Shown here piece by piece: positions 9,400 through 25,097 of a DNA stretch of 64,000 bases. Location of the stretch: the NCBI GenBank assembly GCA_040753435.1, contig JBFMEN010000069.1, positions 47,551 through 111,550 on the forward strand, given 5' to 3'. A program made the position numbers and the translations under genes. Source of the stretch: Candidatus Omnitrophota bacterium. GTDB taxonomy: Bacteria > Omnitrophota > Gorgyraeia > Zapsychrales > JANLHA01. How positions within the stretch are numbered: position 1 is the first letter of the stretch; each line of letters begins with the position of its first letter. The notes below the pieces were generated by a model. That model worked only from the letters and a program-made list of their open reading frames with translations. It ran no database searches and was not told where the DNA came from.

Positions 9400-9445
9400 A
9401 CTTTTGTTTGGCGAACGGCTGAAATATGACGAACAGGAGATATCG

Positions 9446-9676
9446 ATGCAACCTCAAGACAAGTATGAAATGTATTTAGTGAAGGCAGTGTTTTCAGTTT
9501 TTTTAATAGTGTTAATCGTTTTTGCGGGCGGAATGGCTGAAAAGATGGCGAAAACAAGAGTTAATGAAGAGGCTGAATATTTAGGAGATGATTTGTTATT
9601 TTATGACAACGTGAATATGCTTGTGGTTGGAATGGAGGGAGAGAATGAAGCGGGGACGTGGCCTCTTGATCGTTGA
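9446..9676 (+). CDS. Small hypothetical membrane protein (77 aa, one TM helix)
   Basis: The ATG at 9446 follows AGGAGA (9435-9440). One hydrophobic helix (LVKAVFSVFLIVLIVFAGG). The 3' end overlaps the pncA start by ~30 nt. This replaces the longer listed ORF 9377..9676. Confidence 0.3.
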   Translation: MQPQDKYEMYLVKAVFSVFLIVLIVFAGGMAEKMAKTRVNEEAEYLGDDLLFYDNVNMLVVGMEGENEAGTWPLDR

Positions 9677-15936: not shown

Positions 15937-16623
15937 ATGTTGCTGAGCTTAACTCATTTAAAAGGACGCCAGTTAAAGACAAAGAACGGTGAGGCCGGGC
16001 GCATCAGGGATTTTCATTTTGACGATAAGAAATGGCGGTTGATGCTTTTTGTGACCGATTCGGGTTCCAGGTTTAACGCGCAGAATGTTTACATATCATT
16101 TGTTGAATTTAATAGTAAATCACGATGGCCGGATAACGCCACGTCTATCAATAGTGTCAAAAAATCGCGCAATGAACTGCTGCCTGATACGGATATTTGC
16201 AGCAGTGAAATAAAAAGAGCCGAACAGTTCAGGCATTATTATTACTTGCCGGAGTGGGTCAAGGCCCATCCGGATAAACCATCAATTCTTGGATTGTTTT
16301 ATGAGAGTGATGATCCGGTTGAAAAAAATAAAGAGGTCGATCAGGATCGTTTTCACAGTCTGGAAGAAATGCTCGGGTATCAGGTCAGGGCATTGGACGG
16401 CGATATCGGTCATGTCTCCGATTTGATTGTTGATGATTACTCATGGAAGATTTTTTTTATTGTTTTCCAGATAAACAAACTCCTCGTTTCAAATGAGATG
16501 CTGATAGGGACGATGGATGTTATGCGGGTTCAGTGGCCGACACGTGAAGTTTTCATTGGCACGACAAAGGATCAGGCCTTCAGCTATTCGGGGCTATCAC
16601 ATTCACAAGACCGTTCTCAATAA
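15937..16623 (+). CDS. PRC-barrel domain protein (tandem PRC barrels), paralog 1
   Basis: LKGRQLKTKNGEAGRIRDFHFDDKKWRL and LGYQVRALDGDIGHVSDLIVDDYSWKI resemble PRC-barrel (PF05239) repeats. It is paralogous to 16646..17389 and 25128..25865. Confidence 0.55.
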   Translation: MLLSLTHLKGRQLKTKNGEAGRIRDFHFDDKKWRLMLFVTDSGSRFNAQNVYISFVEFNSKSRWPDNATSINSVKKSRNELLPDTDICSSEIKRAEQFRHYYYLPEWVKAHPDKPSILGLFYESDDPVEKNKEVDQDRFHSLEEMLGYQVRALDGDIGHVSDLIVDDYSWKIFFIVFQINKLLVSNEMLIGTMDVMRVQWPTREVFIGTTKDQAFSYSGLSHSQDRSQ

Positions 16624-16645
16624 CTCAGTTGATGAAGGGAACAGT

Positions 16646-17389
16646 ATGTTGAGAAGTTTGAAAAGCATATTAGGGTACGCGATTCAGGCGAAGGATGGCC
16701 AAATCGGAAGCGTAAAAGATGCCTTCTTCGATGACGAAAGCTGGGTGATTCGTTATCTGGTCATCGAAACTGGGACCTGGCTATCGGGCAGAAGTGTTTT
16801 GCTGTCGCCGATCGCGTTTACCCCCCCAAATACAAAACCGGATTGGAGTACGAAAACGATAGAAGTATCCTTGACAAAAGAACAGGTGAGGGTATCGCCA
16901 GATGTTGACGCAGATAAACCTGTTTCCCGTCAGAATGAGATAAAGATGAGCCAGCATTATAAGTGGTCGAAATATTGGGAGCATGATTTTTTTGCAGTTC
17001 CCAGAACCAAATACACGATCCCTGATATAGCCGTTGATGATGAGGGCAATGACCTGCATGTGAGGAGTGCAAGAGAAATTTTGGGTTATTTAGTCCACGG
17101 AATTGACGGTAATGCCGGGCGCGCAGAGGATTTCATTATTGATGATGAAACATGGCATCTGGTCTATTTTGTTGTCGGCATAAAGAAAATCTTTCCCGGG
17201 AAGAAAGTCTTGCTTGCCCTGGAATGGATTAAGTCGATCAGTTGGGAGAGATCCCGGGTTGACGTAGATTTGAGCTGCGACAGCGTTCGAAATGGACCCG
17301 AATTCCATCCTGATGAACCGGTTAATCGGGAAGTTGAAGAGGTATTATATGATTTTTATGGAAGGCCGAAATACTGGAGTCAAAGATGA
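16646..17389 (+). CDS. PRC-barrel domain protein (tandem PRC barrels), paralog 2
   Basis: ILGYAIQAKDGQIGSVKDAFFDDESWVIRYLVIETGTWLSGRSVLL and ILGYLVHGIDGNAGRAEDFIIDDETWHLVYF; ends ...YDFYGRPKYWSQR, matching the third copy. The ATG at 16646 is the first Met after the upstream gene's stop. Confidence 0.6.
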   Translation: MLRSLKSILGYAIQAKDGQIGSVKDAFFDDESWVIRYLVIETGTWLSGRSVLLSPIAFTPPNTKPDWSTKTIEVSLTKEQVRVSPDVDADKPVSRQNEIKMSQHYKWSKYWEHDFFAVPRTKYTIPDIAVDDEGNDLHVRSAREILGYLVHGIDGNAGRAEDFIIDDETWHLVYFVVGIKKIFPGKKVLLALEWIKSISWERSRVDVDLSCDSVRNGPEFHPDEPVNREVEEVLYDFYGRPKYWSQR

Positions 17390-17634
17390 TCAACGGAGAG
17401 GAGCAGATTAAGCGGGCTATTGTCGAGGCGTTATGTGAAGATCCGGATGTGGATGCGGCCGGGATAAGTGTCCGGGTGACGGGATCTTTAGTCGTTTTGA
17501 CCGGAACCGTACCAAATCAACGCGCCAGAGATGCTGCTTATCGTGACGCATTGTTATCAGATGATATTGAAGTAAAAAATTTTATTGTAGTTAATGACAA
17601 CCCGATTGACGACCCTAAAGCGCACATTGCTTGA
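17386..17634 (+). CDS. BON-domain protein (single BON)
   Basis: ISVRVTGSLVVLTGTVPNQRARDAAYRDAL... is a BON unit. A 4-nt overlap with the upstream PRC gene indicates coupling. Confidence 0.55.
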   Translation: MINGEEQIKRAIVEALCEDPDVDAAGISVRVTGSLVVLTGTVPNQRARDAAYRDALLSDDIEVKNFIVVNDNPIDDPKAHIA

Positions 17635-17664: not shown

Positions 17665-18132
17665 ATGGAAACGATTAAGAGAAATATTGAAAACATTTTG
17701 TGCTGGGATAAACGGCTGGAAGGATCAAAGATCCGGGTCGAGGTTGCAAATGGCAGGGTTGTCTTAACCGGGATTGTATTGAATTATCAAGCCTGGGAAT
17801 CGGCGCGCAACGATGCCTTGATTATTCCTGATGTTGTTTCCGTTGAAAGCAGATTAAAGATCCGCAAGCGTGCGCATTTTAAATCACCTCCCGATCAAGT
17901 AATTCAAGAAAAGGTCAGGAAGTTATTTTCAATTAACACGGATGTTCGGAACAAGGATGTTACGATCCATGTTTCCAATGGTAACGTCACGTTAAGAGGG
18001 AATGTCGGCTCGTATTGGGAAAAAATGCTTGCATCGCGAATCGCTTACCAGGTAATAGGAGTGACACGTGTTTTTAATCAGCTTTCCGTCAGTATTACTG
18101 AAAAGAAGCAAAGTGAGTTGGTTTTTAATTAG
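17665..18132 (+). CDS. BON-domain protein (two BON repeats)
   Basis: IRVEVANGRVVLTGIVLNYQAWESARNDAL and VTIHVSNGNVTLRGNVGSYWEKMLASRIAYQVIGVTRVFNQLSV. Confidence 0.65.
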   Translation: METIKRNIENILCWDKRLEGSKIRVEVANGRVVLTGIVLNYQAWESARNDALIIPDVVSVESRLKIRKRAHFKSPPDQVIQEKVRKLFSINTDVRNKDVTIHVSNGNVTLRGNVGSYWEKMLASRIAYQVIGVTRVFNQLSVSITEKKQSELVFN

Positions 18133-18170: not shown

Positions 18171-19562
18171 TTGATGCAGATCAGAGAATATTACGAAGAT
18201 TCGTATGTGCAGGCCAGGATGATTGAGTTTATGGGAGGAAAAAGAGCGGAGGAGAGCACTTGTGTTTATCTTTTGAAGTGTGACGTTGTCGAAGGTGATT
18301 GTATACGAAAGCTTCCGACCGAACTTGAGTTTTTCCTCTTGAATGAAATGGATGTTTGCCGCTCCCTTTGGGACAGAAAATATCTTCTCGTTCATCTCGA
18401 TATCGAATATGTGAATTTTGATTTCCCTGGGGAACCATACCTCGATTATGAGCGGTGTTTTCAACTTCAGCAGCCCCTTATGGATGTTGTCATGAGTATG
18501 TTTGTTAAATATGGTCTTAAACCGTTGCATTTGTTAAGCGGCAGAGGACATCATTTCACCTGGTGTGTAAAACAGAAATCGCCGATATTTCATCAGTTGG
18601 CCGGCATCGGGCGGCTGTCCGAGAACCTTCGAAAAAAATACAGGGAGCCCCATCCACCGACCGGAGAATCTATCGGCGTCCAACTTGGAAAAGCTTTTTC
18701 AGGATTGGGATTGGCTATTGAATATTTGTCGTTTGAGGCAAAAGCTAAAAGTGTTACCCGGATACCAGTTCAGATAACTGCCGTTCGCGTTGAGCCACAG
18801 GAGCGGGGACGCGAAGTCATTTCAATTGATATTTCCGAATACGCCGATCCGCTCGATACCAGGATGATCCGTATTCCGTTCAGCGTTTACCATAAGCATT
18901 TTACTAAGCGATGGCTCATTCCCGATAATCTGCGTGATACTCTTCCGCCAATTTTTTTAATTCCGCTCACTGATCATGATTATCGGAAAGCCATTCGGAT
19001 TATGCGAAATCCTGATGAGGTCCATTCCCTGGCGCGAACGACTTCCGCAACAATTCCCGAATGCCCCAAGGCAATGAAAAGATTGATTGATGATTATAAG
19101 GCCTCCAGATTGGCGCGCTTTCACGAATGGTTTTATTCACAAGAACATGAAGATCCGGAAAATTGGCTGACATCATATGATCAAGCGCCGCTGGATCGGA
19201 TACCCGCCTGCGCCAGAAATATTTTAGAGAATCCCAATGATCTTTTATTGCGACCCGAATGTATTCGTCATGTCGTTATTTGCTTTTTGGCTCTGGGCTG
19301 GCACCCAAGACAGATTGCAGGATTGATTCGCTCTAAATATGAGCGAAATTACGGCTGGGGGAGGCTGTGGTACATTTATGACGCTGCAGAGCGGGCCGAC
19401 TTTTATACACGTGTTTTTTCTGGACTGATTGAGCTTGGGTATGACCTGCTGGACGATTTTACATGTGAAGGGGTTAAAAAGAGCGGAGTTTGTTTCCATG
19501 AAGACGACAAGCACGACCTCGCTTCTTTAAGAAAGTCTGTTTTAAAAAGAAGGTGGTTATGA
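18171..19562 (+). CDS. Archaeo-eukaryotic-primase (AEP/PrimPol) superfamily-like protein, hypothetical
   Basis: Three AEP motifs in canonical order and spacing. Motif I is LLVHLDIEYVNF (acidic D-x-E). About 60 aa later, motif II is HLLSGRGHHFTW (sGxGxHh). Motif III is VISIDIS....RMIRIPFSVYHK (D ... R.P.S.H.K). The Cys-containing helical C-terminal half has no recognised motif. The start is uncertain (TTG 18171, ATG 18174, or later Met). Confidence 0.5.
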   Translation: MMQIREYYEDSYVQARMIEFMGGKRAEESTCVYLLKCDVVEGDCIRKLPTELEFFLLNEMDVCRSLWDRKYLLVHLDIEYVNFDFPGEPYLDYERCFQLQQPLMDVVMSMFVKYGLKPLHLLSGRGHHFTWCVKQKSPIFHQLAGIGRLSENLRKKYREPHPPTGESIGVQLGKAFSGLGLAIEYLSFEAKAKSVTRIPVQITAVRVEPQERGREVISIDISEYADPLDTRMIRIPFSVYHKHFTKRWLIPDNLRDTLPPIFLIPLTDHDYRKAIRIMRNPDEVHSLARTTSATIPECPKAMKRLIDDYKASRLARFHEWFYSQEHEDPENWLTSYDQAPLDRIPACARNILENPNDLLLRPECIRHVVICFLALGWHPRQIAGLIRSKYERNYGWGRLWYIYDAAERADFYTRVFSGLIELGYDLLDDFTCEGVKKSGVCFHEDDKHDLASLRKSVLKRRWL

Positions 19563-20422
19563 TCGACTGGCCGATCGGAATTTCGACAGGTTGTTTTTAT
19601 GAGAAGTCAATTTTTGACTGCCTTGAAGCAATAATGTCCAATGGCTTCTCGATCCTTGAAATCAGCTCGGCGCTGCAGCATTTAAATTATCACGATCGGG
19701 GAATGGTTCAGAGCGTTGCAAAAACTATCAAAGAATTGGGGATGGAGGCTTATTCCTTCCACGCCCCCTTTAGCGATGACATTGATATCGCCGCTCTTGA
19801 TGAGGCTCATTATGAGCGATCAGTCAATGAAATCATGCTTGCTATCGAGGCGGCTTCCATCTTAAATACTCGTTATTTTCTGCTTCATCCTGGCCCAAGC
19901 AGAGAATCTCGGCAGGCAGAAAACGAGTACTATCAACGAATGACACGGGTATCGGAAGCGATAAAAAAGATGGCCAGGCAATGCAAGAAACTGGGAATGC
20001 TGTTGATTTTGGAAAATATGCTCCCACATCTTTTATTTAGCAGCCCAAAGGACATTCTCTGGATCATCGGATCAGTTGAAGAAACGAATATCGGGATCTG
20101 CCTGGATACGGGACACGCGTTTCTGTCCGACGAGCTTTATGCGATCGCTCATAAGTTCGCAGGTCACACGCAGCTGATTCACGCTCATGATAATTACGGG
20201 AAACACGATGATCATCTCCCGCCCGGGAAAGGAAGGATAGATTGGAAATATTTTTTAAGAGAAGCGGCGGAATCAGGCTTTAACGGAGGGTTGATCATTG
20301 AATTGAACAAGGGAGATAAAAGTACTGAAAAAATTCTTGAAGAGGCCAGGCATTCTCGGGCTTTGATGAGAGAAATTCTCAGGGAGATTGAATTGACTTT
20401 GCCGCCAATTTCTGGGGAATAG
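19559..20422 (+). CDS. Xylose-isomerase-like TIM-barrel protein (AP endonuclease 2 / sugar-phosphate isomerase-epimerase superfamily)
   Basis: Metal-ligand motifs YFLLHPG, LLILEN, IGICLDTGHAF and LIHAHDNYG are in the order seen in Endo IV, UvdE and sugar isomerases. The ATG at 19559 overlaps the upstream stop (ATGA); the alternative GTG is at 19553. Confidence 0.7.
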   Translation: MIDWPIGISTGCFYEKSIFDCLEAIMSNGFSILEISSALQHLNYHDRGMVQSVAKTIKELGMEAYSFHAPFSDDIDIAALDEAHYERSVNEIMLAIEAASILNTRYFLLHPGPSRESRQAENEYYQRMTRVSEAIKKMARQCKKLGMLLILENMLPHLLFSSPKDILWIIGSVEETNIGICLDTGHAFLSDELYAIAHKFAGHTQLIHAHDNYGKHDDHLPPGKGRIDWKYFLREAAESGFNGGLIIELNKGDKSTEKILEEARHSRALMREILREIELTLPPISGE

Positions 20423-24604: not shown

Positions 24605-24641
24605 TTATTTTTTAACATTGAGCCGTCGGAAGGAGATTTTC

Positions 24642-25097
24642 ATGAAAATAAACGAAATTATGACAAAGGGCGTAGAAGTTATTAGTTCGGATGCCACAAT
24701 TAAACAGGCCGCCGACCGGATGCGTGTTCTTAATGTTGGTGCCCTGCCGGTTAGAAGCAATGGCACGTTAATTGGAATTTTAACGGATCGTGATATTACA
24801 GTCCGGGCTATTGCCGAGGGGCGGAACCCCGAGTCCACTCCCGTAAATGAGATCATGAGCAGAGAAATCCAATGGTGTTACGATGATCAGGATGTTCAAG
24901 AGGCATCTCGTTTGATGAAAGAAAAACAGATACGACGTCTTTTGATAAAAGATCGTAATGAGCAGATTTCCGGAATCGTTTCACTTGGCGATATCAGCAC
25001 CCATGCCCCGTCAGAGTTAACGGGAGAAACGACAAAGGAAATCTCAGAACCGTCACATCCTGAACGCGAGACCGGGTTTGGAGAAACACGATTATGA
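24642..25097 (+). CDS. CBS-domain pair protein
   Basis: Two CBS units (IMTKGVEVISSDATIKQAADRMRVLNVGALPV...GILTDRDI; IMSREIQWCYDDQDVQEASRLMKEKQIRRLLI...GIVSLGDI). The ATG at 24642 follows AGGAG. Confidence 0.8.
   Translation: MKINEIMTKGVEVISSDATIKQAADRMRVLNVGALPVRSNGTLIGILTDRDITVRAIAEGRNPESTPVNEIMSREIQWCYDDQDVQEASRLMKEKQIRRLLIKDRNEQISGIVSLGDISTHAPSELTGETTKEISEPSHPERETGFGETRL

Follow-up and report, generated by a model that had tools for sequence, protein, structure and literature searches.

In a 64,000-nt stretch of the genome of a Candidatus Omnitrophota bacterium (hereafter the window), two overlapping genes on the + strand encode a primase-polymerase-like protein (ORF A) and an endonuclease IV (EndoIV)-like TIM-barrel protein (ORF B). 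We propose, with a probability of about 0.6, that this locus is a self-contained two-enzyme DNA-repair module in which incision or end-cleaning is joined to resynthesis. The proposal draws on the archaeo-eukaryotic primase (AEP) fold and the conserved catalytic residues of ORF A, the metal-ligand set of ORF B, the pairing and natural fusion of the two genes, their distribution outside mobile elements, and the repair and stress genes in their surroundings. The two genes and their junction lie as follows.

18174-19562, + strand: ORF A, a 462-aa primase-polymerase-like protein with an AEP domain at its N-terminus and, C-terminally, a helical Cys-rich domain (taken from the ORF list)
19559-20422, + strand: ORF B, a 287-aa EndoIV-like TIM-barrel protein, putatively a metallo-phosphodiesterase
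19549-19562, + strand: translational-coupling junction, with a Shine-Dalgarno sequence (AAGGTGG) within the end of ORF A, then an ATGA start/stop overlap of 4 nt

A previous interpretation made from the letters of the window (the sequence-only reading) had described two + strand ORFs joined by an ATGA overlap, the first of them 463 aa long. The junction, read directly as AAGGTGGTTATGATCGACTGG, bears out this arrangement, with the TGA stop codon of ORF A at 19560-19562. The length is probably one residue too great: the identical database protein (P0001, annotated as 'hypothetical protein, Candidatus Omnitrophota bacterium') has 462 aa, and on the strength of this NCBI call the start of ORF A is most likely ATG 18174 rather than TTG 18171. 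Similarly, ORF B most likely starts at ATG 19559 and not at the upstream GTG 19553, the start in the mechanical ORF list. Residue numbers used here follow the 463-aa version of ORF A (from TTG 18171) and the 289-aa version of ORF B (from GTG 19553). The combination of a start/stop overlap with an internal Shine-Dalgarno sequence is a classic translational-coupling layout, through which the A and B proteins would be made in fixed proportion.

The pairing of the two genes extends far beyond the window. A scan of one genome per GTDB species (~185,000 species genomes) detected ORF A relatives in 403 of them. The best 80 loci belong to Verrucomicrobiota (29), Planctomycetota (21), Fibrobacterota (17), Desulfobacterota (5), Acidobacteriota (4), Omnitrophota (1), and Methylomirabilota (1), with 2 unclassified. 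Together with the loci of Desulfurivibrio alkaliphilus and Verrucomicrobium spinosum, each present on two contigs, they make up 84 bacterial loci, and in 82 of these, spread over at least seven phyla, an ORF B ortholog (37-55% identity) starts a few bases from the end of ORF A. Divergent ORF A members occur in DPANN archaea (Candidatus Woesearchaeota) and in Elusimicrobia. In three archaeal loci (L088, L090, and L092) the order is reversed, with the TIM-barrel gene directly upstream of ORF A, and in a fourth (L086) the two genes lie 2 kb apart. Moreover, two database proteins are natural A-B fusions (P0128, 747 aa; P0140, 724 aa). The co-occurrence that the sequence-only reading had put forward for checking is therefore borne out, and the fact that adjacency is kept despite the change in order, together with the fusions, provides strong evidence that the A and B proteins work together, probably as a complex.

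In 62 of the best 80 loci ORF A continues for exactly 65 nt within ORF B, in the +1 frame; in others the overlap is 10-14 nt. The 65-nt overlap yields a conserved ORF A tail, 'ERLAxRPFNRLFLPxEH' (for example at 9409-9473 of locus L003), and the window has the short overlap (19553-19562). We considered this tail as a beta-clamp-binding motif and rejected the idea, as these residues come from translating the first 65 nt of ORF B (GLSTGCFY..SIFD) in the +1 frame. The ORF A stop codon after the 65-nt overlap is made by the conserved Phe21-Asp22 codons of ORF B (TTT GAC). With an overlap of just 10 nt, the N-terminus of ORF B shows equal conservation, and ORF A of the window has no such tail.

A conserved third partner was sought by clustering 879 neighboring ORFs and by a Pfam census of 288 flanking ORFs, and none emerged; matches to transketolase and phosphoglucomutase reflect synteny local to Fibrobacterota. 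In two loci of deep, Elusimicrobia-like branches, a tandem ORF A paralog stands in place of the TIM barrel (L091, 6373-7737; L089, 4742-6169). The two tandem copies share 42% identity and have retained the DIEY, SGIH, and SSDLTQY...R..R...S.HQK motifs, which suggests a variant of the system in these branches that would form an A-A' hetero-oligomer.

The N-terminal part of ORF A carries the following features.

18171-18950, + strand: AEP catalytic domain, approximately residues 1-260
18399-18407, + strand: AEP motif I, D77-I-E79 (HLDIEYVNFD), the acidic metal-ligand pair, on model strand 71-82
18537-18554, + strand: AEP motif II, S123-G-R-G-H-H128 (LLSGRGHHF)
18828-18896, + strand: AEP motif III region, D220 to K242, ISIDISEYADPLDTRMIRIPFSVYHK

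The predicted fold and the three conserved motifs place ORF A in the AEP superfamily. The AlphaFold (AF2) model (pLDDT 92.5, pTM 0.93) shows an AEP fold, and a Foldseek search with it returned Prim-PolC first (E 6.8e-4, probability 1.00), with AEPs occupying all of the top 17 matches. An independent structural comparison gave further Prim-Pols at lower scores, and the CRISPR-associated Prim-Pol CAPP is among its matches. The three motifs are located on the expected strands of the model and in the expected order. On this model, the catalytic domain is structurally nearest to the bacterial repair Prim-Pols, namely Prim-PolC and the LigD polymerase domain, with structural alignments to Prim-PolC showing 12-16% identity.

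No sequence-level tie of ORF A to a solved structure or a family came out of single-sequence or profile searches. Neither the protein alone nor its profile had a match in Pfam (E up to 1), NCBIfam, PADLOC, PHROGs, or the PDB sequences. The PriS family PF01896 gave no match at E up to 1, and the LigD_Prim-Pol model PF21686 did not recognize ORF A; the same model scores a LigD Prim-Pol fragment at locus L066 with 177 bits. The family itself is nonetheless large, with more than 1,200 homologs, all of them 'hypothetical' where named, which share 45-52% identity across phyla. When 1.84 billion representatives were searched exhaustively with a hidden Markov model (HMM), only 688 proteins were retrieved at E up to 0.001, and those inspected were family members or fragments.

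Conservation within this family supports the catalytic assignment. The sequence-only reading had identified three AEP motifs in ORF A, and their agreement is far beyond chance when examined in 35 homologs (45-52% identity), in 166 sequences, and in divergent archaeal and deep bacterial members (25-35% identity). Motif I has an invariant D77 and an E79 conserved at 90% or more, with the 25-35%-identical members included. In motif II, G124, R125, and G126 are invariant among close homologs and H127/H128 are at least 90% conserved; the divergent members keep G124 and G126, and have H, Q or N at the position of H128. Thus, the histidine pair ascribed to motif II holds for the close homologs, and its second residue does not hold for the divergent ones. 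In the motif III region, D220, D226, R231, P236, Y240, and K242 are invariant in the 35 close homologs, while D220, R231, and R234 are invariant and K242 is nearly so in the divergent set.

For ORF B, the nine residues aligned with the metal ligands of EndoIVs are listed below by the first base of each codon.

19760-20302, + strand: EndoIV-type metal ligands (nine), assigned by alignment to EndoIVs
19760, 19886, and 20012, + strand: ligands H70, H112, and E154
20105, 20114, and 20180, + strand: ligands D185, H188, and H210
20207, 20213, and 20300, + strand: ligands D219, H221, and E250

ORF B had been read as a TIM barrel of the EndoIV/isomerase superfamily, in agreement with its match to PF01261 (E 2.9e-38, 132 bits vs a cut-off of 31.1). 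All of its NCBIfam scores are below cut-off: 52.9 vs 105 for CbiR, 32.2 vs 129.65 for nfo (TIGR00587), 50.7 vs 305 for fructoselysine 3-epimerase, and 33.5 vs 300 and 38.8 vs 353 for other epimerase/isomerase models, with all epimerase scores under 51 against cut-offs of 200 or more. Its nearest solved relative is MJ1311 (3wqo), with E 2.7e-18 for the protein alone and 4e-36 with the family profile. Beyond MJ1311, the profile is about equally far from TTHB071, Mycobacterium tuberculosis EndoIV, IolI, and ketose epimerases. Because the distances to the EndoIV and epimerase profiles are about equal, overall similarity leaves ORF B unclassified.

The predicted metal site, unlike overall similarity, places ORF B with the EndoIV type. 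Eight ligands (H112, E154, D185, H188, H210, D219, H221, and E250) are invariant in 77 of 77 orthologs and align to H109, E145, D179, H182, H216, D229, H231, and E261 of Escherichia coli Nfo. The remaining ligand, H70 (in sFHAPf), is matched in an HMM alignment with vHAPY of M. tuberculosis EndoIV (5zhz), and its Nfo counterpart is H69. When the archaeal members are included, seven of the ligands remain invariant and D219/H221 are at least 90% conserved. The isomerase-type protein IolI has no equivalents of H70, H112, and H221. This ligand set, with at least three histidines beyond the Glu-Asp-His-Glu set to which isomerase-type metal sites are limited, and the sub-threshold scores led us to reject a sugar isomerase or epimerase; ORF B does not fall into the sugar-isomerase clade that would have spoken against the sequence-only reading. 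ORF B can likewise be ruled out as the Nfo of its genome: it scores 32.2 bits against a cut-off of 129.65, and D. alkaliphilus has a separate, true nfo (TIGR00587, 282 bits) that adjoins its A-B pair, indicating that ORF B represents a specialized paralogous family and not the Nfo of the cell. The score for CbiR (NF041277), 52.9 vs 105 bits, also falls short of membership, and no cobamide genes recur among the neighbors of the module.

The C-terminal half of ORF A carries the following features.

18951-19559, + strand: C-terminal helical domain, approximately residues 261-463, with apparent similarity to the Fe-S domain of PriL and the catalytic domain of photolyases
19209-19211, 19464-19466, 19491-19493, and 19506-19508, + strand: putative cluster ligands C347, C432, C441, and D446, respectively, from column conservation

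According to the sequence-only reading, this half matched nothing. Structural comparison revised that view, as the domain appears to resemble, with modest fold scores, the Fe-S domain of PriL and the catalytic domain of photolyases, two folds whose likeness has been published; the values listed for it were 5.7 for human PriL, 5.5 for pRN1 ORF904, 5.4 for the pRN1 helix bundle, and 4.6 for PriX. In the 166 family sequences, Cys occupies the columns of C347, C432, and C441 in 93%, 90%, and 92% of cases, respectively, and a fourth column, five residues past C441, in 68%; the divergent members examined all have Cys in each of the four columns. The first two cysteines of ORF A have a spacing of 84 residues. 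In FeS-BCP photolyases, four cysteines are found with the first 86-89 residues ahead of the second, a pattern said to resemble that of archaeal PriL (PMC3204975). The conserved Cys columns of the ORF A family, with their comparable spacing, make the FeS-BCP prokaryotic (6-4) photolyases (PhrB) and the PriL C-terminal domain candidate counterparts of its C-terminal domain. Judged from these columns, the C-terminal domain probably binds a [4Fe-4S] cluster. ORF A of the window has Asp446 at the fourth position, with His443 and His448 close by; this Asp could reflect an Asp-ligated cluster, another metal site, or loss of the cluster in the window lineage.

The surroundings of the pair connect it to DNA repair at several loci. 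The only two bacterial loci without ORF B (L066 and L072), both from one Desulfobacterota lineage, have a glycosylase gene of the uracil-DNA glycosylase (UDG) superfamily (PF03167) overlapping the stop codon of ORF A. At L066, two Ku genes and a LigD Prim-Pol lie immediately upstream, and at L072 a PolX with a PHP domain is 3 kb away. These loci do not count as two independent replacements of ORF B; their glycosylases are 93% identical, which points to a single evolutionary event. In D. alkaliphilus (L001, 10417-15807), the pair is followed by a convergent canonical nfo and by sbcC-sbcD, and a ribosome hibernation factor fused to a cold-shock domain is encoded upstream. At L093, recA adjoins ORF A. 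In the archaeal locus L092 (1634-6419), genes for HIT, NUDIX, and PD-(D/E)XK nuclease proteins form one co-directional run with those for the TIM barrel and ORF A, and an HhH-GPD glycosylase gene is oriented divergently; the run looks like an extended operon for oxidative damage or base excision repair (BER) built around the A-B pair.

Stress and maintenance genes recur more widely. Among the 288 flanking ORFs, the recurrent neighbors are CBS pairs (8), Usp (6), Fe/Mn superoxide dismutase (3), PCMT (3), Hsp20 (2), hibernation factor (2), and FtsH (2), which matches the BON, PRC-barrel, FtsH, and CBS genes of the window. CBS-pair genes lie near the module in several phyla (for example at 9267-9710 of L032) and form an 11-locus cluster in the 6-kb flanks, and one ORF A family member, P0228, has a CBS pair at its N-terminus. 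CBS pairs typically sense adenosine nucleotides, and their recurrence and fusion may indicate regulation by nucleotide or energy state. Expression of the module appears to be tied to stress or dormancy.

Based on these observations, we propose a plausible mechanism for the module, with DNA as its presumed substrate. First, ORF B, acting as an EndoIV-type trinuclear-metal phosphodiesterase, would incise DNA at abasic or oxidized sites or clear 3'-blocks to leave a 3'-OH. ORF A would subsequently fill the resulting gap, as its nearest structural relatives do; alternatively, it may start de novo; the helical domain would then hold the initiating nucleotide or the 5' end, a task that accessory domains perform in other AEP primases. 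Finally, a host ligase would seal the nick. A precedent for such a division of labor is provided by Prim-PolC and LigC, which fill BER gaps of 1-3 nt with a preference for ribonucleotides in stationary phase, and among end-processing nucleases EndoIV worked best in the Prim-PolC/LigC reaction reconstituted in vitro (PMC5663958).

A more specific form of this proposal, which we advance tentatively and hold at somewhat less than even odds, is an unrecognized cellular repair pathway that pairs a single-chain Fe-S primase-polymerase with a dedicated EndoIV-like nuclease in one complex. The nuclease would open or clean the lesion and the AEP would re-initiate or fill by means of its PriL-like domain, probably when cells are energy-limited or dormant, in many bacteria and in DPANN archaea.

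Several observations weigh against a repair module. The replacement of ORF B by a UDG-superfamily protein is one event only, repair genes are adjacent in a minority of loci, and the neighbor census is led by lineage-local synteny and stress genes. A ligase is not part of the module. The fold scores of the C-terminal domain of ORF A are modest. ORF B is not an Nfo ortholog (32.2 bits vs 129.65), by overall profile score ketose epimerases and EndoIVs are about equally near to it, and its best match below cut-off, CbiR, is a phosphodiesterase of a cofactor and not of DNA. Nevertheless, a small DNA-repair or primer-synthesis module, as suggested by the sequence-only reading, is favored on account of the UDG swap beside Ku and LigD, the archaeal operon of repair genes, and the nfo/sbcCD or recA neighbors.

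A first alternative is one in which priming is the purpose. ORF A would be a true single-chain primase (PriS-like plus PriL-CTD-like) in a dedicated priming or restart system, making primers on chromosomal DNA, for example downstream of lesions or at stalled forks under stress, and ORF B would process primer or template ends, for instance by trimming 3' blocks or ribonucleotide-containing ends. We consider this unlikely.

Slightly less probable still is a function outside DNA, in which ORF A would act on RNA (end repair or tailing) or make a nucleotide-containing metabolite or signal, with ORF B, as a phosphodiesterase or isomerase, processing the product in the way that CbiR acts on cobamides. 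The CbiR score of 52.9 bits, the best sub-threshold match of ORF B, and the equal overall nearness of ORF B to sugar epimerases and EndoIVs both fit such a role. The neighbors, too, are mostly stress, maintenance, or metabolic genes (CBS, Usp, NAPRTase, transketolase) and not repair genes, and the CBS pairs found nearby and fused in P0228 are of a kind that typically senses adenosine nucleotides. The sequence-only reading had raised a related option, non-DNA nucleotidyl transfer beside a sugar isomerase; the repair contexts weaken it, and we keep it as a minor rival.

An anti-phage defense or mobile-element replication module lodged in the chromosome is very improbable: AEPs of bacteria, particularly if they carry PriCT or PriL-like domains, are in many cases mobile-element-encoded or defense-associated (PMC5862659) and CAPP is among the structural matches of ORF A, but the pair has no PADLOC or PHROG match, searches of 50,697 phage records, 72,556 plasmid records, and IMG/VR gave no relative of the ORF A family, the flanks hold housekeeping and stress genes with a lone transposase fragment at a single locus (L091), and 45-52% identity across phyla with one match per fetched locus is typical of a conserved cellular gene.

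In the window, the pair is flanked by genes for FtsH, two proteins with a PRC barrel, two with a BON domain, one with DUF2490, nicotinate phosphoribosyltransferase (NAPRTase, pncB), and one with DUF72. These domain matches confirm the BON, PRC-barrel, and pncB genes, which the sequence-only reading had taken for stress/dormancy genes, and neither the window nor the other loci showed a phage or plasmid context. The BON-domain ORFs (17386-17634 and 17665-18132) are directly upstream of ORF A on the same strand, and a stand-alone CBS-pair protein is encoded at 24618-25097, 4 kb downstream of the pair. Two consecutive PRC-barrel ORFs, 15937-16623 and 16517-17389, overlap by ~100 nt as mechanically listed, and the second gene probably starts further downstream than listed. 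Across the 64 kb, co-orientation is unusually strong, with 41 of 42 ORFs of at least 220 aa on the + strand; GC skew is positive in all 2-kb bins (0.06-0.25), and base composition is even along the window. No tRNA genes or Rfam families were found in the window, and a promoter and terminator scan around the pair gave nothing beyond shuffle expectation.

ORF A represents a new AEP family, with an architecture that is new for a cellular bacterial enzyme and a new, near-obligate partner. The searchable literature yielded no description of the ORF A family or of a gene pair joining an AEP with an EndoIV-like protein, and no curated model covers ORF A. Since the component superfamilies and AEP-based repair are already known, the novelty lies in the family, the architecture, and the partner. 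Missed by Pfam and NCBIfam and annotated as 'hypothetical', this chromosomal family joins a repair-type AEP core to a PriL-like domain that is probably of the Fe-S kind. To our knowledge, the bacterial AEPs with known cellular roles are essentially LigD, in non-homologous end joining (NHEJ), and Prim-PolC, in BER. If the proposed reading holds, the module would join LigD/Ku and Prim-PolC/LigC as a third AEP-based repair system of bacteria, and would define a new, compact pathway of excision and resynthesis in lineages that are mostly uncultured and little studied. ORF A would be the first bacterial AEP outside mobile elements to have a PriL-type Fe-S domain, bearing on the evolution of the PriL-CTD and the Fe-S photolyases, and ORF B would give a functional context to 'EndoIV-like' TIM barrels of the MJ1311 type. 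With V. spinosum and D. alkaliphilus as cultured carriers, the hypothesis is directly testable.

Among the closest known systems is mycobacterial Prim-PolC, an AEP of the NHEJ-type clade that fills BER gaps together with LigC. ORF A has no detectable sequence similarity to it and carries a putative C-terminal Fe-S-type helical domain that Prim-PolC lacks. In addition, Prim-PolC is paired with the ligase LigC and not with an encoded nuclease, whereas the ORF A module contains no ligase and has a nuclease as its genetic partner. In comparison with the LigD polymerase domain of Ku-dependent NHEJ, ORF A is not fused to a ligase or phosphoesterase and possesses an extra PriL-like domain; Ku and LigD are adjacent in only 1 of 82 loci, and ligase is absent among the recurrent neighbors.

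On the side of ORF B, EndoIV (Nfo, TIGR00587) shares the PF01261 TIM barrel and the nine trinuclear-site ligands at equivalent positions, but ORF B forms a separate family (32.2 bits vs 129.65) that coexists with a true nfo in D. alkaliphilus. MJ1311 (3wqo), described as a predicted, uncharacterized EndoIV homolog of Methanocaldococcus jannaschii (PMC2770678), shares with ORF B the vHAPF, HPG, LENM, DIGHA, HAHDN, DEHLxxGEG, and IEN motifs. It has no known AEP pairing and no reported function, and we found no functional data on MJ1311 or TTHB071 in the searchable literature.

According to a census of bacterial AEPs from 2018, only mobile-element AEPs have PriCT domains and PriL occurs almost solely with replicative primases; this census mentions no TIM-barrel or EndoIV partner (PMC5862659). 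Fusions of an AEP with a PriL-like domain are known from PolpTN2 and the Nanoarchaeum equitans primase (PMC3973330, PMC10250227, PMC5862659). PolpTN2, from the Thermococcus plasmid pTN2, and the monomeric N. equitans primase follow the same idea of an AEP joined to a PriL-CTD-like domain with a predicted 4Fe-4S cluster. These enzymes are archaeal and plasmid-borne or replicative, whereas the ORF A family is mostly bacterial, chromosomal, and outside the mobile-element collections; its modeled catalytic domain is nearer to the NHEJ-type clade than to PriS, and its partner is a TIM barrel.

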